Below the pieces are notes generated by a model. It was given only the letters and a program-made list of their open reading frames with translations, ran no database searches and was not told the origin of the DNA. From Clostridia bacterium (lineage in GTDB: Bacteria > Bacillota > Clostridia > Christensenellales > Aristaeellaceae), in assembly GCA_017937655.1 (NCBI GenBank), contig JAGBDE010000009.1, positions 5,944 through 69,943 of the forward strand: a stretch of 64,000 bases of DNA, given 5' to 3'. Position 1 is the first letter of the stretch. Each line of letters starts with the position of its first letter. Shown one piece after another: positions 7,927 through 45,280 of this stretch. The position numbers and the translations under genes were made by a program.

Positions 7927-9477
7927 ATGTCCACCCCCAACGAAATTGTCCGCTTCTCCCATGTGAGCAAGCAGTTTCCCGGCACCCTGGCCAACGACGA
8001 CATCAGCCTGAGCATCATGAAGGGCGAGGTGTTTGCGCTGGTGGGCGAAAACGGCGCGGGCAAATCTACGCTGATGAACCTGCTGTACGGCCTGCAGGAC
8101 GTGACGCTGGGCGAGATCACCATCGACGGTACCAAGATTACCGCCCAGCACAACCCGGAAAAGGCCATGGAACTGGGCGTGAGCATGGTTCACCAGCATT
8201 TCAAGCTGGTGCCCAGTTTTACCGTCGCCCAGAACATCCTGCTGGGCCACGAGCCCAAAAAGGGCCTGGCCTATGACTTTGCCGCTGCCCGGGAAACCGT
8301 GCGGAAGCTGAGCGAAACCTACGGCCTGGAGGTCAACCCGGACGACGAAGTGCAAAAGCTGTCCATCGGCCTGCAGCAGCGTGTGGAAATCCTCAAGGCA
8401 TTGCGCATCGGCGCCAAGGTGCTGATCCTGGACGAGCCCACCGCCGTCCTCACCCCCCAGGAGACCGACGAGCTGTTCGACGTCATCCGCCGCATTGTGC
8501 GGGAAAACGGCATGACGGTGATCCTCATCACCCACCGGCTGCCGGAAGTGATGCAGATCAGCGACCGGGTGGGCGTGATGAAGCGGGGCAAGCTGGTCAG
8601 CGTGCTGGAAACCGCCGCCACCTCCCAGCGGGAGATCGCCTCGCTGATGGTGGGCCGAGACGTGATTTTTGACGAGCTGCGCACGGAGCATCCCCTGGGC
8701 GAGGAACGCCTTGTGCTGAAAGGCCTCCAGGCGGACAGCGACCGCAATCTGCCTGCCCTTAGGGGCATCGACCTTAAGGTGCATGCCGGGGAGATCGTGG
8801 GCGTGTGCGGCGTGGAGGGCAACGGTCAGACCGAGCTGGCGGAATGCATCATGGGCATCCGGCCCCAGACCGGCGGCCAGGTGCTGCTGAATGGCGTGGA
8901 CATCAGCCGGCTTGGCCCCCGGGAGATCCGGGAAAAGGGCGTCAGCTTCATCCCTGAAGACCGCATGACCACCGGCGCGGACGCCAAGTCCTCCGTGGAG
9001 GAAAACCTGCTGCTGGGTAAGCAGAAAAAGAAGGAATTCAGCCTTTTCGGCATCCACCTGAAGCGGAAAGCCGTCCGGGACTACGCCAACACCCTGCAGG
9101 AGAAATTCGATATCCGCACCTCCGGCGTGGAGGAAAAGATGAGCTCCCTGTCCGGCGGCAACATCCAGAAAGTGGTCATCGCCCGGGAATTCAGCTTCGA
9201 AACCCCGGTGCTCATCATCAGCCAGCCCACCCGCGGCGTGGACATCGGCGCCATTGAATTTATTCACGAGCGCATCATGCAAAAGCGCAACGAGGGCGCG
9301 GCCATCCTGCTCATCAGCGCCGACCTGGACGAGCTGTTCCGCCTCAGCGACCGGCTGGTGACCATTTACGAAGGCAAACTGACCGGCTCCTTCCAAACCG
9401 AGGACATCACCCGGGAGGAGATCGGCTACTACATGACAGGCGCGGGCCACGAGGGAAAGGAGGAGAAACATGCGTAA
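7927..9477 (+). CDS. ABC transporter ATP-binding protein, tandem ATPase (nucleoside/sugar CUT2 type)
   Basis: Two ATPase domains. Walker A is GENGAGKST, LSIGLQQRVEI and LSGGNIQKVVI are the signature motifs, and LILDEPT is Walker B. Confidence 0.9.
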   Translation: MSTPNEIVRFSHVSKQFPGTLANDDISLSIMKGEVFALVGENGAGKSTLMNLLYGLQDVTLGEITIDGTKITAQHNPEKAMELGVSMVHQHFKLVPSFTVAQNILLGHEPKKGLAYDFAAARETVRKLSETYGLEVNPDDEVQKLSIGLQQRVEILKALRIGAKVLILDEPTAVLTPQETDELFDVIRRIVRENGMTVILITHRLPEVMQISDRVGVMKRGKLVSVLETAATSQREIASLMVGRDVIFDELRTEHPLGEERLVLKGLQADSDRNLPALRGIDLKVHAGEIVGVCGVEGNGQTELAECIMGIRPQTGGQVLLNGVDISRLGPREIREKGVSFIPEDRMTTGADAKSSVEENLLLGKQKKKEFSLFGIHLKRKAVRDYANTLQEKFDIRTSGVEEKMSSLSGGNIQKVVIAREFSFETPVLIISQPTRGVDIGAIEFIHERIMQKRNEGAAILLISADLDELFRLSDRLVTIYEGKLTGSFQTEDITREEIGYYMTGAGHEGKEEKHA

Positions 9478-10552
9478 AAAGCTGGACAAGGATTACCTCA
9501 TTTCCCTGTTTTCCTCCATTTTCCTGGCCTTCTGCGTGGGCGCACTGATCATGCTGATCTGCGGCTACAACCCTATCGACTGCTATGCCAAGCTGTTCGT
9601 GGGCGCGCTGGGCACCCCCTTCGCCCTGGGCAACACCCTGGAAAAGATGATGGTCCTGGCCCTCTGCGGCCTGGCCATGTGCGTGGCTGCACAGGCCGGC
9701 ATCTTCAACGTGGGCGGCGAGGGCCAGCTGTTCATGGGCGCTTTGGCTGCTGCCGTGGTGGGCGCGCAGGTGAAGAACGTCCCCCCGTGGGTGGTGGTAA
9801 TCCTGGCCCTGCTGGCAGCCGTTGCGGCTGGCGGCCTCTACGCCTGGATCCCCGGCGCCATGAAGGTCTACTGGAAGGTGGACGAGGTCATTACCACCAT
9901 CATGCTCAACTCTGCGGCCATCTTCTTTTGCAGCTACATGGCCAACGGCCCCCTGAAGACTGCCGAGAAGGGCATCGCCGTGGGCACGGACAGCATCATG
10001 CCCGAGGCCGCCTTTGCCAAGATCATTCCCATGAGCAACCTGACCACCGCCATCATTTACTCCGCGGTGGTGGCCCTGTTTGTGTGGTACCTGATGACCC
10101 GCAGCGCCACCGGCTACGAGATGAAGCTGACCGGCAACAACGAGCGTTTTGCCAAGTACGGCGGCATTTCCTCCAAGAAGCTGATGCTCCTGGGCATGGT
10201 GCTTTCCGGCGCCATCTGCGGCCTGTGCGGCATGCTGGAGATTTTCGGTTTGCACAAGCGGTTCATCACCACCATTTCCAACGAGTTCTACTTTGACGGC
10301 ATGCTGGTGGCCATGATCATGCGCTACAGTCCCTTCGGCACCATCGTCATGAGCCTGTTCTTCGCCGTCCTGAACATCGGCGGCAAGGCCATGCAGCTCA
10401 GCGCAGGCATCTCCAGCGAGGTCATCCAGATTGTCCAGTCCGTCATCATCTTCTTTATGGCGGCCGAGGGCGGCATCCGCACCATGCTGAAAGAAAAGGC
10501 AGCCCTGCGCAAAGCCCGCGTTGAGGCCGCCCGGAAGGAGGCCCTGCAATGA
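9470..10552 (+). CDS. ABC transporter permease (BMP/CUT2 system)
   Basis: 360-aa polytopic ORF. Its start overlaps the ATPase stop. It has the typical branched-chain/ribose-type permease fold signature. Confidence 0.85.
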   Translation: MRKKLDKDYLISLFSSIFLAFCVGALIMLICGYNPIDCYAKLFVGALGTPFALGNTLEKMMVLALCGLAMCVAAQAGIFNVGGEGQLFMGALAAAVVGAQVKNVPPWVVVILALLAAVAAGGLYAWIPGAMKVYWKVDEVITTIMLNSAAIFFCSYMANGPLKTAEKGIAVGTDSIMPEAAFAKIIPMSNLTTAIIYSAVVALFVWYLMTRSATGYEMKLTGNNERFAKYGGISSKKLMLLGMVLSGAICGLCGMLEIFGLHKRFITTISNEFYFDGMLVAMIMRYSPFGTIVMSLFFAVLNIGGKAMQLSAGISSEVIQIVQSVIIFFMAAEGGIRTMLKEKAALRKARVEAARKEALQ

Positions 10553-37501: not shown

Positions 37502-38878
37502 TTAGATGGTTCCCGACCTCTTGTGAATCATCCTTGCAATGATGGAGTATACAATCAGCGTGAATGGAGGCAAAAACAGCGAAATGCAATTTGCTACTAT
37601 ATGGAAATCGTGATATTCTACCAAGCATGGAATCAAGAACGAACAAAACGAACATGCCAACGCACACAAAGTCATGATCATTTTTTGTGACGTGCGAAGA
37701 AACGCGCAAGATACATAAGTAAGTAACGGCAGCACAGAAACAAAGGCTGCACCTGTCAGATAGAGAAAGGAAACGTGAAAGCTGTCATATGCAATCGAAC
37801 GGATAAAAATTGAAACCGTTTCTTCATGTATCATGACCGCGAAAAAGCACATGGTCCATAGAGAAGAAATACATCTTGCGTGGATTGAATCAAATTCCCG
37901 TCTTTGGCGCTTGCGGTACAAAACGAAAGCTACAACACAGAAAAAGCATGTGTTCAGCAATTCGAATGTGCCATCAATCAGCGGCCCATCTATCAATTCA
38001 TATGCATTTGCGATCGTATGAATTCCTGCCAACTGAATCGCAAGATGAACACATCCCCAAGTTAACCAAATGATTCCCAAATACATCAAATATGGCTCTT
38101 GATGTATTGTGTGATCATGATGATCAACAAGACGATCAGGCGCGTTGTCAAGTTTTTGGACGGCTTTCACAGTAGACCATGAACATATGGCAAGCATCAG
38201 CGGAAGAACGAAGCGGAAACAGATTACCAACATTCTGGCAAAATGATCGCTTTGCAGAATGTTATTTTCATCCAGGCTGAAATTTATCAATCCGATGATA
38301 GGAAGGCTTATGAGCGCAAAGAAAACAGCAAGTCTGCCAAGCGCTTTGTGTTGACACAGGATGCCGGTGATATATTGAGCTACGATGATCGGCAAAAGCA
38401 AGGTAAGAAAACGAAACGGATCATTCAAAGCAATGAACATGCTTACTGCTTGGGGAGACGGAAGTTGTCGCCGAAACAAAACACTGCTGAGACCCCATAG
38501 AACAAGCGGAGCAATCGTTGCAATGCCCCACAGAAGCAAGATATCATTTTGGATGCAGTCCATTGGATGCGTTCGTTTGAACGAAATCACCAGTATCGAT
38601 AGTAAAAGAACGGACGATATGGCAATATACACAAGTCCCTTATTTGACAAGCATTGAAGAGAGATGGCTTCATAAGAGGGCGGGTCAACATCCGCTCTCC
38701 AGTACACGATTCCGCTGGGTTGTGTAAAATGGTTCCAGCCAAATGAAAAGAGTAATAATACCATACATGCAGCTATCAAATACAAGGAAATGTTAGACCA
38801 AGATTTACTTCTTCCAACCATAATGTCACTCCAATATTTGCTCATGGTAAGTGCCAAGGAACTTTGATCGAGAAACAT
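37502..38878 (-). CDS. Hypothetical polytopic membrane protein (at least 10 TM), AT-rich gene
   Basis: No recognisable family. The start MFLDQSS at 38878 was chosen because the shared TGATAGAAT promoter lies inside the longer track ORF. AAGGGA lies 9 nt upstream. Confidence 0.55.
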   Translation of the reverse strand: MFLDQSSLALTMSKYWSDIMVGRSKSWSNISLYLIAACMVLLLFSFGWNHFTQPSGIVYWRADVDPPSYEAISLQCLSNKGLVYIAISSVLLLSILVISFKRTHPMDCIQNDILLLWGIATIAPLVLWGLSSVLFRRQLPSPQAVSMFIALNDPFRFLTLLLPIIVAQYITGILCQHKALGRLAVFFALISLPIIGLINFSLDENNILQSDHFARMLVICFRFVLPLMLAICSWSTVKAVQKLDNAPDRLVDHHDHTIHQEPYLMYLGIIWLTWGCVHLAIQLAGIHTIANAYELIDGPLIDGTFELLNTCFFCVVAFVLYRKRQRREFDSIHARCISSLWTMCFFAVMIHEETVSIFIRSIAYDSFHVSFLYLTGAAFVSVLPLLTYVSCAFLRTSQKMIMTLCALACSFCSFLIPCLVEYHDFHIVANCISLFLPPFTLIVYSIIARMIHKRSGTI

Positions 38879-38886
38879 CTTATGTA

Positions 38887-38949
38887 TCCCTTTCATTCTA
38901 TCATAGCAGCACAAAAACCCGCAAGCCTTGGCTGGCTTGCGGGTTCGGG
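38887..38949 (-). repeat. Module L (copy 1): hairpin + T-run + extended -10 promoter TGATAGAAT
   Basis: Minus strand reads CCCGCAAGCC-AGCCAAG-GCTTGCGGG-TTTTTGTGCTGCTATGATAGAATGAAAGGGA. It is nearly identical to plus-strand 45930..45979. It also serves as the glmM operon terminator. Confidence 0.85.
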
Positions 38950-38982
38950 ATCCCCGCCAAATGACGGGGCGTTTTTTGTTGT

Positions 38983-40332
38983 TTATTCCACAATGTGGCC
39001 CTTTGCGCGGATCACATCAATGACGGAATCCACGTACTTCTGGCACACTTCGTTGCTTTCCGCTTCCACCATCACGCGGATGACGGGCTCGGTGCCGCTT
39101 TCGCGGACCAGGATGCGGCCAGAGTCGCCAAGCTCGTCGGCCACCTTCTTCACCGCAGCCTGCACGTCAGGATCGTTCTGGGCGGCGGGCTTGCTGGTGA
39201 CGCGAACGTTCTTGAGCACCTGGGGATAGAACACCACGGGGGCGGCCAGCTCGCTCATGGGCTGGTTCTTTGCAAGCATGACCTCCATCATTTTCAGGCT
39301 GGTCAGGATGCCGTCGCCGGTGGTGGCGTACTTGGAGAAAATGATGTGGCCGGACTGCTCGCCGCCGATGCGGTGGCCATAGGTGACCATGTTCTCGTAG
39401 ACGTACTTGTCGCCCACGGCGGTCTTTTCGTACTCAATGCCCACCTTGTCCAGGGCCTTGTAAAGGCCGAAGTTGGACATGATGGTGGTGACTACCTTGT
39501 TGTTGAGCAGCTTTCCACGCTCCTTCATGTACAGGCCGTAGATGTACAGGATGTGGTCGCCGGTGATGACGTTGCCCTTCTCGTCCACACACAGGCAGCG
39601 GTCGGCGTCGCCGTCATAGGCAAAGCCCACGTCCAGCTGATTGTCCACCACAAACTTCTGCAGATGCTCGATGTGGGTGCTGCCGCAGTCGGTGTTGATG
39701 TTGTAGCCGTCGGGGGCGTCGTTCATGACGTACACCTTGGCGCCCAGGGCCTCGAACACGCCCTTGGCCACCTGCCAGGAAGCGCCGTTGGCCAGGTCCA
39801 GGCCCACCTTCTTGTTCTTGAAGCTGTACTTGGACATGGAGATCAGGTAGCCGATGTAACGGTTGCGGCCGGCCACATAGTCCACCGTGCGGCCGATATC
39901 GTTGCGCTCCGCCACGGGGATGTCGATCTTGCCGTCGATGTAGTCTTCCACCTTCAGGATGGTTTCCTCATCCATCTTCTCGCCGTTGCCGTTGAGCAGC
40001 TTGATGCCGTTATCGTAGTAGGGGTTGTGGGAGGCGGAGATCATGATGCCGCAGTCAAAGTCGTCCACCCGGGTGATGTAGGCCACGGAAGGGGTGGTGG
40101 TGACGTGCATGATGTAAGCGTCTGCGCCGGAGGCCATCAGGCCGGTGCACAGGGCGTACTCAAACATGTAAGAGCTGCGGCGGGTATCCTTACCGATGAC
40201 GATCTTGGCCTTCTTGCCCTGGTTGGCGCCATAGTACCAGCCCAGGAAACGGCCGATTTTTACCGCATGTTCAAAGGTCAGGTCCTTGTTGGCTTCGCCG
40301 CGGAAACCGTCAGTTCCAAAATACTTGCCCAC
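38983..40332 (-). CDS. glmM: Phosphoglucosamine mutase
   Basis: MGKYFGTDGFRGEAN, the active-site ISASHNP, and GGEQSGH. Confidence 0.95.
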   Translation of the reverse strand: MGKYFGTDGFRGEANKDLTFEHAVKIGRFLGWYYGANQGKKAKIVIGKDTRRSSYMFEYALCTGLMASGADAYIMHVTTTPSVAYITRVDDFDCGIMISASHNPYYDNGIKLLNGNGEKMDEETILKVEDYIDGKIDIPVAERNDIGRTVDYVAGRNRYIGYLISMSKYSFKNKKVGLDLANGASWQVAKGVFEALGAKVYVMNDAPDGYNINTDCGSTHIEHLQKFVVDNQLDVGFAYDGDADRCLCVDEKGNVITGDHILYIYGLYMKERGKLLNNKVVTTIMSNFGLYKALDKVGIEYEKTAVGDKYVYENMVTYGHRIGGEQSGHIIFSKYATTGDGILTSLKMMEVMLAKNQPMSELAAPVVFYPQVLKNVRVTSKPAAQNDPDVQAAVKKVADELGDSGRILVRESGTEPVIRVMVEAESNEVCQKYVDSVIDVIRAKGHIVE

Positions 40333-40333
40333 G

Positions 40334-40996
40334 TTACCGTTCCTCCTTGAGAATCACTTTGCCGCTGTTTTTCCAGATAGCATTGGCCGGCACAACGCCC
40401 CTGACGCAGGAGGTGGGGTACACGTTGGAATGGCGGCCGATGACGGTGCCAGGGTTCAGCACGGCGTTGCAGCCCACTTCCACATAGTCGCCCACCATGG
40501 CGCCGAATTTCTTCACGCCGGTCTCGATCTTTTCCTCACCGTCACGAACCACCACCAGCTGCTTGTCGGACTTGACGTTGCTGGTGATGCTGCCTGCGCC
40601 CATGTGGCTGTAATAGCCCAGGATGGAGTCGCCCACATAGTTGTAGTGGGGAGTCTGCACGTGGTCAAACAGGATCACGTTCTTCAGCTCCACGGAATTG
40701 CCCACCACGCAGTCCGCGCCCACCAGAGCGGAGCCGCGGATGAATGCGCAGTGCCGCACCTCCGTGTTGGGGCCGATGATGCAGGGCGCGCCCAGGAACG
40801 CAGTGGGGGCCACCTTGGCGGTCTTGTGCACCCACACGTTCTCCTCGCGCTGTTCGTAGTCCTCACCCAAAGTGGGGCCCAGCTGCAGGATCATGTCCTT
40901 GATGCCCTTCAGGGCCTCCCAGGGGTAGGTGAACTGGCGCAGATAATCCGCTGCCAGGCTGTGGTCGAGGTCATAAAGATCTGCTATCGTGTGCAT
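40334..40996 (-). CDS. Left-handed beta-helix (hexapeptide) acyltransferase resembling the GlmU C-terminal GlcN-1-P acetyltransferase domain
   Basis: Hexapeptide repeats and NYVGDSILGYYSHMGAGSITSNVKSDK resemble the GlmU acetyltransferase core. No nucleotidyltransferase domain. The ATG overlaps the nagB stop (TAATG). The track ORF N-terminal extension overlaps nagB. Confidence 0.6.
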   Translation of the reverse strand: MHTIADLYDLDHSLAADYLRQFTYPWEALKGIKDMILQLGPTLGEDYEQREENVWVHKTAKVAPTAFLGAPCIIGPNTEVRHCAFIRGSALVGADCVVGNSVELKNVILFDHVQTPHYNYVGDSILGYYSHMGAGSITSNVKSDKQLVVVRDGEEKIETGVKKFGAMVGDYVEVGCNAVLNPGTVIGRHSNVYPTSCVRGVVPANAIWKNSGKVILKEER

Positions 40997-41787
40997 TACA
41001 GACGTTCTCCTCTCTCGATGTCCAGGAAATACTTGTAGGTGTCCACGGTCAGCTCGCCGCAGGCGGCCTCGTCGCAGGCGATGATGGCGCCGTTGTGGTT
41101 CTGCAGCGCGGAGCAGGTCCACTTGGAGCTGACAGCGCCTTCCACGGTGGCAGCCAGGGCCCGGGCCTTGTTGTGACCGTTGATCAGAATGAGAACCTCC
41201 TTGGAATCCGTCACGGTGCCAACACCCACGCTCAGGGCCTGGGAAGGAACCTTCTCAGGATCGTTGCCGAAGAAGCGGGAGTTCACGATGCGGGTATCGG
41301 AGGTCAGGTTCCGGATGCCGGTGCGGGAGGTCAGGCTGGTGAAGGGCTCGTTGAAGGCGATGTGGCCATCCACGCCGATGCCGCCCATGAACAGGTCGAT
41401 GCCGCCATAGGAAGCAATCTTCTCTTCATACCGTGCGCATTCCGCCTCGGGTTCATCCGTCATACCATTCAGGATATTGATATTTTCCGGCTTCATGTCC
41501 ACCAGGTGGTTGAAAAAGTTTTCATGCATGAAGTACCAGTAGCTCTGGTCGTGCTCGTGGGGCAGGCCCAGGTATTCGTCCATGTTGAAGGTGACCACAT
41601 TGGCGAAGGAAAGCTCGCCGGCCTGGTTCATCCGGGCCAGTTCCTTGTACACGCCGATGGGAGAAGAACCGGTGGGCAGGCCCAGGATGAAGGGCCGGTC
41701 TTCCTTGTGATTCTTGATTTTGTTAGCAATATAGTTTGCTGCCCACTGGCACATTTTGGCATAGTTGTCCTGAATAACCACTCTCAT
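40996..41787 (-). CDS. nagB: Glucosamine-6-phosphate deaminase/isomerase (hexameric NagB type)
   Basis: [26 protein letters not shown] and [17 protein letters not shown]. It is collinear with E. coli NagB throughout. Confidence 0.92.
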
Positions 41788-41869
41788 TGGTGTTATCCTC
41801 CTTTGTTATTTGGGGAAAAATCAGCCTTTTGGTCTATCTGCTGCCCGCTGGGGCGCTATCCTATCAATC

Positions 41870-42012
41870 CTGATTCAGCAACAAGGGAACCTCTGTTACG
41901 GCATTTCTCCCGCTTTTTCTTTTCCCTCTAACGACGTACTGCACGCCGTGACAGCATCCGCCGAGTCTTTCGATCGCTGCCAACCTCGTCACCCTGAAAG
42001 GGCCTGGCGCTA
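41870..42012 (-). ncRNA. glmS-type GlcN6P-dependent ribozyme (cis-regulatory) in the nagB leader
   Basis: Minus strand from 42011 reads A|GCGCCAGGCCCUUUCAGGGUGACGAGGUUGGCAGCGAUCGAAAGACUCGGCGGAUGCUGUCACGGCGUGCAGUACGUCGUUAGAGGGAA...UUCCCUU. It has the conserved strings AGCGCC, GACGAGG, AUCGAA and CGGCGGAUGC. Pairings are UGGCAGC/GCUGUCA, CGGCGU/ACGUCG and AGGGAA/UUCCCU. Confidence 0.8.
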
Positions 42013-42094
42013 AATATCTTTTTCCTTTATTTTGCCTTCAAAAAACAGCTCCTTCAGCGTTTTGATTTGAAAGGATGCCCAAAAGGCCAGAATC

Positions 42095-42123
42095 ATAATA
42101 CAACAAAATACATTTGATAGCAA
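42095..42123 (-). promoter_or_regulatory. Candidate promoter for the ribozyme-nagB transcript (TTGCTA-17-TATTAT)
   Basis: Reverse complement of 42118..42123 is TTGCTA. Reverse complement of 42095..42100 is TATTAT. This gives a leader of about 80 nt before the cleavage site. Confidence 0.4.
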
Positions 42124-42285
42124 GCTTTCATTTGGAAACCAGGCGTCCAAATCGGCCAAAAAGCCAATGGATACGCCCACTCTGGCGTTTTGCTTTTCTT
42201 TTGCCCGGATGGGAGATTTGGTTGCCCAAAAAGGGAAAATGGGGTATGATGGAGTTGTATTTTTCATCAAGGAGGCCGCGCTGCC

Positions 42286-43311
42286 ATGAATGTGAATTAT
42301 GCCGTTGAGATGACCACAAATCTTCTGTCTATTCCCAGCCCCACGGGCTTTACCCACAATGTGACCGATTATCTGCTTTCCACCCTCACCGCCATGGGCT
42401 ATGAGCCCGTCCGCAACCGCAAGGGCAGCGTCAGCTGCTGCATCGGCGGGGAAGGCCGGCCTTTGGCCCTGGCCGCCCATGTGGACACCCTGGGCCTGAT
42501 GGTGCGGGAGATCAAGGCAAATGGCCGTCTTTCCTTTGCTTTGCTGGGCGGCCCCTCCTGCCAGGCGGTGGAGACGGAGAACGTGACCGTCATCACCCGG
42601 GAAAATAAGCAGTACACCGGCGTGGTCGAGCTGCAAAACGCCTCCGTCCACGTCAACCCTGACCTGGAGGACACCAAGCGGGACATCAAGACCCTGGAAA
42701 TCCTCCTGGACGAAGAGGTTGCCTCCAAGGAAGACGTGGAAAAGCTGGGCATTGCCAACGGCGACATCGTGGCACTGGACCCCCGCACCCGGGTGACAGA
42801 ATCCGGGTTCATCCGCAGCCGCTTCCTGGACGACAAGCTGAGCGCAGGCATGCTGCTGGAATTGGCCCGGGCCGTGAAGGCCGGCGAGGTGAAGCCCGCC
42901 CGGAAGCTGACCATTTTCTTCTCCGTGTACGAAGAAGTGGGCCACGGCGCGTCCACCGGCCTGCCCCAGGATACGGAAGACCTTCTGGTGGTGGACATGG
43001 GCTGCGTGGGCGAGGGCCTCAGCTGCCGGGAGCAGCAGGTGTCCATCTGCGCCAAGGATTCCAGCGGCCCCTATGACTACTCCATGACCACGGAGCTGAT
43101 TCAGCTGTGCAAGAAGCACGGCATCGACTACGCGGTGGATATCTACCCCCGCTATGGCTCCGACGCAGGCACCGCCCTCCGGGCCGGACACGACATCCGC
43201 TATGCTTTGATCGGCGCGGGCGTATACGCCTCCCACGGCTATGAGCGCAGCCACAAGAAGGGCGTGGAAAACACCCTGGAGCTGATCCGCCGCTACGTGG
43301 AGCTGGCCTGA
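42286..43311 (+). CDS. M42 family metallopeptidase (glutamyl aminopeptidase/FrvX-like)
   Basis: LSIPSPTGF, AHVDTLGLMV, FLDDKLSAG and YEEVGHGAS metal-ligand contexts. AAGGAGG RBS. Confidence 0.8.
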   Translation: MNVNYAVEMTTNLLSIPSPTGFTHNVTDYLLSTLTAMGYEPVRNRKGSVSCCIGGEGRPLALAAHVDTLGLMVREIKANGRLSFALLGGPSCQAVETENVTVITRENKQYTGVVELQNASVHVNPDLEDTKRDIKTLEILLDEEVASKEDVEKLGIANGDIVALDPRTRVTESGFIRSRFLDDKLSAGMLLELARAVKAGEVKPARKLTIFFSVYEEVGHGASTGLPQDTEDLLVVDMGCVGEGLSCREQQVSICAKDSSGPYDYSMTTELIQLCKKHGIDYAVDIYPRYGSDAGTALRAGHDIRYALIGAGVYASHGYERSHKKGVENTLELIRRYVELA

Positions 43312-43339
43312 AACCCATACTGACGAAAAGGAGAACACA

Positions 43340-45280
43340 ATGAGCAGAACCGAAGCCCTTTCCCAATACCGCATCGCCCTGAAGGCAGGGCAGAAATGCT
43401 ACCGGGACTGCGTCCATGAAAAAAAATACCCCTACCTGCAGGTGCTGGATGAACTCCTTCGGGATGCCGTCACCGCCGGCCGGGTGGATATGGGCATTAT
43501 CGATATCCCGGCGGACCGCATTGCCGGCACCTGCTATGTGGGCCGCCGCAACGCCTTTGCCGCCAACTTCATGCCCCTGCTTTCCCCGGAATCGGAGTTT
43601 GCGCTCAAGTGGGTCAACCTGTGCGAGTCCGCCATGCAGATCGGCGTCAGGGAACCCATTTCCTGCTTTGAATTTATGGGACGGTTTTACGTGCAGGAAG
43701 GCAACAAGCGGGTCAGCGTGCAGAAGTCCCTGGGCGCAGCGGCCATTTCCGCCAAGGTGACCCGCATCCTGCCCGCAGAAACGGACGACGAGGCCGTGAA
43801 GGTCTACCACGAGTTTGTCCAGTTCCACCGCTGCAGCGGACTGTACTGGATCTACTTTGACCGGCCCGGCTGCTTTGCCCGCCTGCAGGCCGCTTTGGGC
43901 CACAGTCCGGACTACGAATGGTCCGAGGACGACCGTCTCACCTTCACCTCCGCCCTCCACGGCTTCCGCCGGGCGATGGAGCGGCTGAACAAGCAATGCA
44001 CCACCGAGGAGCTGTCCCTGGCGCTGCTGATCTGGCTGCAGGTTTACTCCCTCAACGAGCTGCTGACCCTGGAAGAGGCCGCCCTGGACAAGTCCATCCT
44101 CAACATCTGGCCGGAAGTGCAGACCCAGCTGCAGCCGGAAAGCATCGCGGTGAGCACCGCTCCCCAGGAGCCCAGCGTCAGCCTGCTGGGCCGATTCCTC
44201 CTGCCCAACCACCTGCGTATCGCCGTGATCCACGAGGGCCAGTATAACAACGGCGACTGGATCACCGCCCATGAGGAAGGCCTGGAATATATGGAAAGCT
44301 GCCTGAGCCGGGAAGTGGAGGTGCGCACCTACCGGGTGCCCGCCGGCGGCGACCCGGAGGCCATTATGCGGGAGGCTATTGCCGACGGCGCCACGGTGCT
44401 GTTTACCACCACCGTCAACCTGATCACCGCCTGCCGGAAAATTGCTGCGGAGCACCGCAACATCCGCATCCTCAACTGTTCCGTGGCCATGCCCTACCCC
44501 GGCGTGCGCACCTACAACAGCCGCATCTACGAGGCCAAGTTCGTCTCCGGCGCCATCGCCGGCGTCATGTCCCGGTCTGACGTGATCGGCTACATCGCCC
44601 ACAGCCCCATCTACGGCGCGCCTGCCAGCATCAACGCTTTCGCCCTGGGCGCCAAGATGACCCGTCCCAGCGCCCGGATCCTGCTCAAATGGAAGGCCGT
44701 CAGCCGAGACCCGGTGCAGGAGCTGCTGGACGCAGGCGTGGACATCATTTCCAGCATCGACACCACCACCCGGGAGTTGGAGCATCCCCTCCGGGGCCTG
44801 GTACAGCTCCGGCCCGACGGCAGCCTGGAAAGCCTGGCTTCCCCCTATCGCAACTGGGGCAATTTCTACATTCAAATCGTCTCCAGCATCCTCCGGGGCG
44901 GCTGGGACGACCCCCAGGCCGAGAACTGCAAGGCCATCAACTACTGGTGGGGCATGAACAGCGGCGTGGTGGACATCCGCCTCTCCCCTGACCTGCCCGA
45001 GGGCGTGCAGCAGCTGGCCCGGATCCTGCGCCGCGGCATCGGCGACGGCTCCGTCAGCCCCTTCCACCGCAGCCTGTACGATCAGCAGGGCAACCTGCAA
45101 AGCGACGGCCATCGCTGGTTCAGCCCGGACGAGATCCTCCGCATGGACTGGCTGTGCGATAACGTGGAAGGCGACATCCCCGCTTATGAGGAACTGATCC
45201 CCCAGGCCCGGCAGATTGTGCGCCTGCAAGGCGTGTACCGGGAATCCATACCGCTGGAAAAGGATGAATTTATCCCATGA
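43340..45280 (+). CDS. Cytoplasmic fusion protein: N-terminal ParB/Srx-like domain (tentative) + helical linker + C-terminal BMP/PnrA-like periplasmic-binding-fold domain
   Basis: No signal peptide. The N-terminus has FMGRFYVQEGNKRVSVQKSLGAAAISAKV (ParB-like G-N/H-x-R pattern). The C-terminal half (RIAVIHEGQYNNGDW...GYIAHSPIYGAPASINAFALGAK) resembles BMP family proteins. Confidence 0.55.
   Translation: MSRTEALSQYRIALKAGQKCYRDCVHEKKYPYLQVLDELLRDAVTAGRVDMGIIDIPADRIAGTCYVGRRNAFAANFMPLLSPESEFALKWVNLCESAMQIGVREPISCFEFMGRFYVQEGNKRVSVQKSLGAAAISAKVTRILPAETDDEAVKVYHEFVQFHRCSGLYWIYFDRPGCFARLQAALGHSPDYEWSEDDRLTFTSALHGFRRAMERLNKQCTTEELSLALLIWLQVYSLNELLTLEEAALDKSILNIWPEVQTQLQPESIAVSTAPQEPSVSLLGRFLLPNHLRIAVIHEGQYNNGDWITAHEEGLEYMESCLSREVEVRTYRVPAGGDPEAIMREAIADGATVLFTTTVNLITACRKIAAEHRNIRILNCSVAMPYPGVRTYNSRIYEAKFVSGAIAGVMSRSDVIGYIAHSPIYGAPASINAFALGAKMTRPSARILLKWKAVSRDPVQELLDAGVDIISSIDTTTRELEHPLRGLVQLRPDGSLESLASPYRNWGNFYIQIVSSILRGGWDDPQAENCKAINYWWGMNSGVVDIRLSPDLPEGVQQLARILRRGIGDGSVSPFHRSLYDQQGNLQSDGHRWFSPDEILRMDWLCDNVEGDIPAYEELIPQARQIVRLQGVYRESIPLEKDEFIP

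Follow-up and report, generated by a model that had tools for sequence, protein, structure and literature searches.

The glmS ribozyme is a textbook one-gene riboswitch, and efforts to target it with antibiotics build on this view. In their 2011 census, McCown, Roth and Breaker reportedly found all but two of 463 representatives in glmS mRNAs. Self-cleavage of this RNA uses glucosamine-6-phosphate (GlcN6P) as a cofactor and is followed by fast decay of the mRNA, so that expression is repressed (PMC5473149). Outside the family, the closest functional analogue is a hepatitis delta virus (HDV)-like ribozyme of Faecalibacterium prausnitzii (Passalacqua et al. 2017, via PMC6765202). On the enzyme side, overexpression of NagB, the GlcN6P deaminase, suppresses an E. 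coli glmS defect (Vogler et al. 1989, as cited in PMC11822699). The direction in which NagB works has been an open question since that suppressor work, and was answered negatively for biosynthesis in Akkermansia. Here, we describe a glmS ribozyme that precedes nagB. It lies in a 64,000-nucleotide stretch of contig JAGBDE010000009.1 (positions 5,944 to 69,943, assembly GCA_017937655.1), which we refer to throughout as the window. Its source is a member of the Clostridia that forms spores, degrades plant fibre and is known only as a metagenome-assembled genome (MAG). Behind the ribozyme are genes for NagB, a stand-alone left-handed beta-helix (LbH) acetyltransferase, abbreviated AT below, and the phosphoglucosamine mutase GlmM. 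Such a nagB-led regulon changes the one-gene picture, and its regulatory logic bears on the direction of the NagB reaction.

We searched the whole window with Rfam cmscan. RF00234, the glmS ribozyme, was the sole family to reach its gathering score (Table 1). The match is full length and untruncated (model positions 1-167 of 167), and the same RNA scores 146 bits with our in-house covariance model R1. The usual context of a glmS ribozyme is not found here; the first gene 3' of the RNA is nagB and the window is without glmS. An earlier inspection of the letters alone, hereafter the sequence-only reading, had proposed a glmS-type ribozyme in this leader, and the cmscan match bears this out. The strings that it quoted are all present on the minus strand. 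These are the core strings A|GCGCC, GACGAGG, AUCGAA and CGGCGGAUGC, and the helix strings P2.1 UGGCAGC/GCUGUCA, P3 CGGCGU/ACGUCG and P4 AGGGAA/UUCCCU. The interval that it gave, 41790-42123, proves to be the complete leader, made up of a promoter-like site, a 5' leader of ~75 nt between the predicted transcript start and the ribozyme cleavage site, the 150-nt ribozyme and the spacer. Cleavage is predicted to fall between A42011 and G42010 of the minus strand.

The RNA was also compared between species. In an alignment of 15 nagB-linked ribozymes, from 15 species, 16 of the 32 predicted pairs have undergone compensatory double changes. The changes fall in P1, P2.1, P3, P4 and P4.1; the pairs were taken from RNAalifold and do not include the pseudoknot helices. 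The core strings A|GCGCC, GACGAGG, AUCGA, UCGGCGGAUG and ACAxAG are present in the window ribozyme and invariant in the 15 orthologous leaders. The invariant core, and the compensatory double changes in half of the pairs, are at odds with a decaying relic. The minimum-free-energy fold of the entire leader was uninformative (z = -1.1), as expected of a pseudoknotted ribozyme. Judged by its sequence, the window RNA is a bona fide, complete glmS ribozyme, for which GlcN6P-dependent cleavage is predicted.

The coordinates of the leader and operon are shown in Table 1. The spacer carries a GGAGG ribosome-binding site at 41797..41801 (-), 9 nt ahead of the nagB ATG. The nagB stop and the AT start overlap by 1 nt (TAATG), and the glmM GTG start is 1 nt past the AT stop (TAA-C-GTG). 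A consensus scan of 38700..42400 listed no minus-strand terminator-like sites, so there are none in the spacer or inside the operon. The intrinsic terminator behind glmM is absent from that listing and was read directly. The overlapping or abutting frames, together with the terminator, therefore define a transcription unit with the order promoter, ribozyme, nagB, AT, glmM, terminator.

Table 1. Leader, genes and terminator of the ribozyme-led operon (window coordinates).
Feature	Position	Strand	Basis
Promoter-like TTGCTA-17-TATTAT	42095..42123	(-)	Consensus scan, 9/12 matches; consensus match only
glmS ribozyme	41873..42022	(-)	RF00234, 74.1 bits (gathering 37), E 3.8e-15
Spacer between ribozyme and nagB, 85 nt	41788..41872	(-)	Read from sequence
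nagB, 263 aa, long (hexameric-type) glucosamine-6-phosphate deaminase/isomerase	40996..41787	(-)	TIGR00502, 377 bits (cutoff 236.9)
Stand-alone LbH acetyltransferase (AT), 220 aa	40334..40996	(-)	TIGR03992 and PDB 2ggo/5z09
glmM, phosphoglucosamine mutase, 449 aa	38983..40332	(-)	TIGR01455, 541 bits (cutoff 447.55)
Intrinsic terminator	38913..38943	(-)	Stem CCCGCAAGCC/GGCTTGCGGG, 6-nt loop, then TTTTT; read directly

The three gene assignments of the sequence-only reading (nagB, a GlmU-C-like acetyltransferase and glmM) all stand. The nagB product (NCBI MBP3540839.1) is most similar, among proteins of known structure, to the hexameric NagBs 7lqm, 7lqn, 5hj5 and 1cd5 (E 1e-92 to 1e-97). Identity to the Pasteurella, Vibrio and E. 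coli structures is ~60%. Equivalents of the catalytic residues D72, D141, H143, E148, R172 and K208 are kept in the window protein and in all 80 relatives described below. Hence, the label 'canonical hexameric-type NagB' is right for the fold family and the catalytic residues, but it does not extend to the segment equivalent to the E. coli allosteric site. Here, the window protein has G-I-R-N in place of R-I-K-T (SSLSSRTRIKT in PDB 7lqm). Residues S151, S152, R158, K160 and T161 are what we take to be the E. coli site for N-acetylglucosamine-6-phosphate (GlcNAc6P), and we give the point little weight. G158 and R160 are found across the clostridial NagB clade, with R-K-T kept in a single locus (L085). 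The altered segment was considered as a marker of ribozyme-linked NagB and was rejected because it occurs clade-wide.

The second gene encodes only the acetyltransferase half of a GlmU-like protein. AT matches positions 210-393 of 393 in TIGR03992, the archaeal-type GlmU model, with 142 bits, which is below the whole-protein cutoff. The Pfam matches are LbH_EIF2B and Hexapep. AT aligns without gaps to the C-domain of Sulfolobus ST0452 (PDB 2ggo/5z09 residues 236-390, E 3e-21) and keeps the motif H117-x-x-Y120-x-G-D, with the catalytic His and the substrate Tyr. The nucleotidyltransferase domain is absent; all GlmU models score far under their cutoffs and match at C-terminal profile positions only. 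The length of 220 aa was taken from gene calls on identical metagenome contigs. We predict that AT is an amino-sugar-phosphate N-acetyltransferase. In public databases the protein (NCBI MBP3540838.1) is named 'UDP-N-acetylglucosamine pyrophosphorylase' or 'NDP-sugar pyrophosphorylase family'. Since AT holds the LbH half only, this name is misleading. The 90%-identity protein cluster of AT mixes 220-aa acetyltransferases with 448-aa GlmM proteins, which has the look of a clustering artefact, perhaps from fused gene calls. GlmM itself (NCBI MBP3540837.1) has all four PGM/PMM domains (I-IV) and the phosphoserine motif SASHNP at residue 99.

We scanned GTDB species genomes with NagB. The 80 loci obtained have 70-93% identity and belong to bacteria of the rumen and gut. 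Loci are referred to by our L numbers where they need to be told apart. Ribozymes in these loci were sought with the Rfam model and with a covariance model built from the 15 leaders. Of the 80 loci, 24 carry a full-length glmS ribozyme, which in every one shares the strand of nagB and occupies the 5' end of the cluster. Ten of the 24 lay outside the training alignment and still scored 117-140 bits. In a neighbour-joining tree of NagB, the 24 ribozyme-linked genes and the window gene fall in one subclade of 41, and the other subclade contains 38 solitary nagB genes and no ribozymes. Between species, DNA homology (75-83%) covers window positions 42013 to 38982, from the ribozyme to the glmM stop, and flanks are not shared. 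The ribozyme travels with the cassette genes, as a conserved unit in one clostridial NagB subclade.

About one third of the nagB-linked ribozymes have a large insertion in the P3 hairpin loop (L009, L011, L018, L019, L023, L036, L037 and L040). In the ribozymes at L040:265-501 and L023:3291-3532 it is 87 nt and 95 nt long, respectively; the rest of the ribozyme is intact. Because Rfam scores drop to 36-51 bits, at or just under the gathering score, standard annotation easily misses these variants. Other structured RNAs occur near cassettes. These are a raiA RNA at L027:1576-1740 (133.9 bits) and Clostridiales-1 RNAs at L040:3674-3857 (-) (96 bits) and L033:10936-11011 (47.5 bits, just below gathering).

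Metagenomes were scanned with a generic ribozyme-core pattern. The matches listed comprised 120 loci, which are an arbitrary sample. By the covariance model, 52 of these 120 were chance matches and were excluded. Among the matches listed, 66 real ribozymes could be classified; 59 precede glmS, 7 precede the cassette described here, and no third context was seen in these 66. The cassette share of about one in ten ribozymes is a rough figure only. Our first regular expression for the core was dropped as a counting tool since it missed five ribozymes that are real by Rfam or covariance model.

Recent horizontal transfer of the cassette is conceivable as a possibility only. The unrelated flanks are consistent with transfer, as are protein identities of 80-93% between MAGs that carry different family labels. 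Conversely, DNA identity is just 75-83%, cassette and flanks have equal GC content, and MAG taxonomy labels are unreliable.

The order of the genes behind the ribozyme varies. The order nagB-AT-glmM was found in 15 cases, including the window. The other ribozyme-led orders were AT-nagB-glmM, AT-glmM-nagB, nagB-glmM, nagB alone (L015) and glmM-nagB-glmS; in each, the ribozyme stays at the 5' end. The permuted order means that the ribozyme belongs to the cassette and not to nagB as such. Thus, the proposal that the ribozyme controls a nagB operon is correct in that the cassette is led by the ribozyme, and needs amending in that AT or glmM comes first in some species. The thing conserved is a regulon, not one promoter-proximal gene.

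Three of the ribozyme-led relatives have glmS downstream in the same co-directional string. The arrangements are nagB-AT-glmM-GT2-glmS (L020), nagB-glmM-mutY-GT2-glmS (L048) and glmM-nagB-glmS (L049), and the glmS products score 727-788 bits with TIGR01135 (cutoff 418). A permissive Rfam scan of these three loci found no second ribozyme; the single one is at the head. The ribozyme must therefore repress both nagB and glmS in these strings, because a glmS gene activated by GlcN6P would create runaway feedback. This argues strongly for a repressive ribozyme in this clade. It puts nagB under control of the same sign as the known GlcN6P synthase, which is hard to square with a catabolic NagB. In Butyrivibrio (L033) a nagB-AT-glmM-glmS cluster occurs without a detectable ribozyme. 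A further arrangement was seen on a metagenome contig of 33% GC (L191), where a glmS ribozyme at 2268-2417 is followed by glmS and then by an AT homologue (44% identity). The AT family is therefore also associated, away from the nagB cassette, with GlcN6P synthesis under ribozyme control.

We examined the neighbours of this nagB clade by a Pfam scan of 150 open reading frames from 61 loci. No family was present in more than 3 of the 150. The recurrent families include IspD/TarI-like, NTP_transf_3, DegT aminotransferase, GT2, PglD-like acetyltransferase and epimerase proteins; LCP, TarB/L-like and GT2 proteins were identified among neighbours checked individually. NagA-type amidohydrolases, phosphotransferase system (PTS) components, ROK kinases and GntR regulators were not among the recurrent families of these 150 neighbours. 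By family assignment, the neighbours of the nagB clade often have predicted functions in the biosynthesis of envelope glycopolymers. The CofD family (PF01933) occurs in two neighbours; among its members is YvcK/GlmR, which binds UDP-GlcNAc and activates GlmS in Bacillus. One locus has a second nagB. In L016, a short Firmicutes-type nagB (9205-9945 (+), 246 aa) encodes a protein 45% identical to the cassette NagB. It lies 1 kb downstream of the AT-nagB-glmM cassette, behind a gene for a YegS/BmrU-type lipid kinase, and the two NagBs are consistent with two different roles.

Around the operon itself, glmS, glmU, nagA, PTS and murA genes were not found in the window and ~5 kb beyond. Genes for an amino-sugar transporter or kinase, or for a NagR/NagC-type regulator, were not found in the 64-kb window. 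Directly downstream of the operon terminator is a gene for a 439-aa protein (37502-38821 (-)) with no Pfam or NCBIfam match. Its GC content is 41-46%, against 55-66% around it, and the gene occurs on contigs of this organism alone; it looks recently acquired. Divergent from the ribozyme promoter region, at 42286-45280 (+), are genes for an M42-family peptidase and a 646-aa Bmp (PnrA-like substrate-binding) protein. This pair is conserved on contigs of the same organism only.

The best explanation for these observations is an anabolic, GlcN6P-repressed operon in which NagB produces GlcN6P; we put its probability at roughly 0.6. The proposed mechanism is as follows. When GlcN6P is plentiful, it would bind the ribozyme as cofactor and cause self-cleavage at A42011|G42010. 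RNase J would then degrade the 3' product, which carries a 5'-OH, by analogy with Bacillus, and less of all three enzymes would be made. When GlcN6P is scarce, the mRNA would stay intact. NagB would run in the aminating direction, from fructose-6-phosphate (Fru6P) and NH4+ to GlcN6P. The rumen is rich in ammonia, which would favour this direction. GlmM would convert GlcN6P to glucosamine-1-phosphate (GlcN-1-P), and AT would use acetyl-CoA to make N-acetylglucosamine-1-phosphate (GlcNAc-1-P), if its substrate is GlcN-1-P rather than GlcN-6-P. The last step should be effectively irreversible, and may pull the unfavourable amination forward. We infer the cleavage, the decay by RNase J, the direction of NagB flux and the substrate of AT. 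The operon should be a net GlcN6P producer because the product-feedback logic fits only then. The sequence-only reading had reasoned in the same way about an anabolic NagB. Its argument is strengthened by recurrence of the ribozyme in 24 of 80 loci, by the lack of recurrent catabolic neighbours and by the operons shared with glmS; the direction of flux remains the inferred part.

Several observations weigh against an anabolic NagB or against its replacing GlmS. Ten loci (L016, L025, L027, L032, L033, L038, L039, L043, L047 and L050) carry the cassette genes with no detectable ribozyme, and hence the RNA is dispensable in some lineages. NagB and GlmS coexist in one operon in relatives, and therefore the cassette alone is no evidence for a missing GlmS. 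Replacement of GlmS, which the sequence-only reading had suggested for this organism, is thus no property of the cassette and is not supported in the form given. Co-expression of the two enzymes, as in L020, L048 and L049, could also result in a futile cycle at low ammonia. Within the clade, no feature of the NagB sequence tells ribozyme-linked from unlinked genes. Characterised NagB enzymes favour deamination (PMC5902328). For Akkermansia NagB, with a Km of ~41 mM for NH4+ and 5.5 mM for Fru6P, the authors concluded that there is no physiological amination (PMC5902328). Taking both sides together, we favour a NagB route that runs alongside GlmS, depends on ammonia and spares ATP; it may or may not have become the sole route in this organism. 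A more far-reaching version is that glmS has been lost here and in many rumen Clostridia. GlcNAc-1-P would then come from the cassette alone, by a route that needs ammonia and saves glutamine and ATP, and the cassette would have spread between lineages as a self-contained module with its own cis-acting GlcN6P sensor. We regard this version as tentative and rather doubtful. If true, bacteria would for the first time be seen to use NagB naturally as a dedicated biosynthetic enzyme.

The strongest competing explanation is that glmM and AT, with glmS where present, are the real regulatory targets. NagB would then be a buffer or passenger that only balances Fru6P and NH4+ against GlcN6P or removes surplus GlcN6P, and a GlmS encoded elsewhere would make GlcN6P. 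The shared gene strings of glmS and nagB in L020, L048, L049 and L033 speak for this, as does the position of AT or glmM, rather than nagB, directly after the ribozyme in several species. The preference of characterised NagBs for deamination points the same way (PMC5902328). A glmS may also lie in the rest of the source genome, of which the window and ~5 kb beyond are a part. Conversely, every complete ribozyme-led operon without glmS has nagB, with the operons sampled either through NagB or through the ribozyme, and the ribozyme of L015 heads nagB alone. The logic of such a circuit is also awkward. It makes little sense to turn down the consumers GlmM and AT at high levels of their substrate unless the producer is repressed along with them, and a deaminating NagB would be wasteful if it were switched on just when GlcN6P runs low. 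We therefore consider a buffering or passenger NagB unlikely.

It is still less probable that the ribozyme is an ON switch, with cleavage stabilising or activating the mRNA so that GlcN6P induces a catabolic NagB. This would restore the textbook role of the enzyme. In addition, Collins et al. are said to have found in 2007 that, where a bacterium lacks RNase J, the 5'-OH cleavage product persists. PMC7967978 has as its topic the requirement for RNase J1 in reporter systems. The same ribozyme type, however, heads the operons that contain glmS (L020, L048 and L049), where activation would be runaway positive feedback. RNase J is normally present in Clostridia. Genes for NagA, transporters and kinases are not among the recurrent neighbours of the nagB clade, and the partners that do occur, glmM and AT, are biosynthetic.

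That the ribozyme is a non-regulatory relic left when glmS was lost or moved, with nagB-AT-glmM expressed constitutively, is very improbable: L048 and L049, which are basal in the ribozyme-linked NagB subclade, still end in glmS, which suggests an ancestral operon running from ribozyme to glmS, and ten cassettes have no ribozyme, but an invariant core in 15 species, the 16 of 32 compensatory pairs and full-model matches in 24 loci at 75-83% DNA identity indicate purifying selection.

An anabolic, GlcN6P-repressed nagB operon would have consequences beyond this locus. Regulatory logic is used here as evidence for the direction of a pathway, and on that footing the cassette would be the clearest natural indication yet of a biosynthetic NagB-type deaminase in bacteria. 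It points to ammonia-dependent synthesis of cell-wall amino sugars in the rumen, sparing glutamine and ATP. The preference for glutamate dehydrogenase over the glutamine synthetase-glutamate synthase pathway at high ammonia is a parallel. The work also flags a systematic misannotation, in which a 220-aa acetyltransferase is called a pyrophosphorylase. The objects for tests can be cloned; they are a 150-nt RNA and three small enzymes, and there is a cultured carrier, Ruminococcaceae bacterium P7 (L011).

The searchable literature contained no report of a glmS ribozyme ahead of nagB or another deaminase gene, which is not proof of novelty. The element is known; its regulon, and the implication for NagB, appear to be undescribed. 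Among the known systems, the F. prausnitzii unit is similar in that a self-cleaving RNA linked to GlcN6P occupies a glmM leader in a gut member of the Clostridia (PMC6765202). It differs in that the RNA belongs to the HDV-like family and GlcN6P is an allosteric modulator, not a catalytic cofactor; nagB is not reported in the unit. E. coli glmS suppression (Vogler, Trentmann and Lengeler 1989, via PMC11822699) shares with our proposal that NagB-I can supply GlcN6P from Fru6P and ammonia in vivo, if highly expressed. Unlike the cassette, this is a laboratory situation, and E. coli nagB is catabolic, induced by amino sugars and without feedback repression by GlcN6P. Akkermansia muciniphila is a gut bacterium without GlmS in which NagB is the only enzyme connecting Fru6P and GlcN6P (PMC5902328). 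Its NagB is not activated by GlcNAc6P, and the window NagB may match it in this, given the altered allosteric segment. Conversely, a catabolic role alone was assigned to Akkermansia NagB, this bacterium is auxotrophic for GlcNAc, and there is no ribozyme or biosynthetic cassette (PMC5902328).

For AT, the nearest described protein is the bifunctional ST0452 of Sulfolobus tokodaii (TIGR03992, Arch_glmU), to whose LbH C-domain it aligns with the His and Tyr kept. AT differs in lacking the whole N-terminal nucleotidyltransferase domain and in not conserving Lys337 and Lys340 of ST0452, which are presumably important for function. Within the RNA family, the system to compare is the canonical glmS ribozyme of B. 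subtilis and other Firmicutes. RNA family, core, the helices P1, P2.1, P3, P4 and P4.1 and the position in a 5' leader are the same, and cleavage with GlcN6P as cofactor followed by RNase J decay is presumed to be the same by analogy (PMC5473149). The difference lies in what follows. The canonical ribozyme precedes glmS, whereas here it precedes nagB, the LbH acetyltransferase gene and glmM, with glmS last in three relatives.

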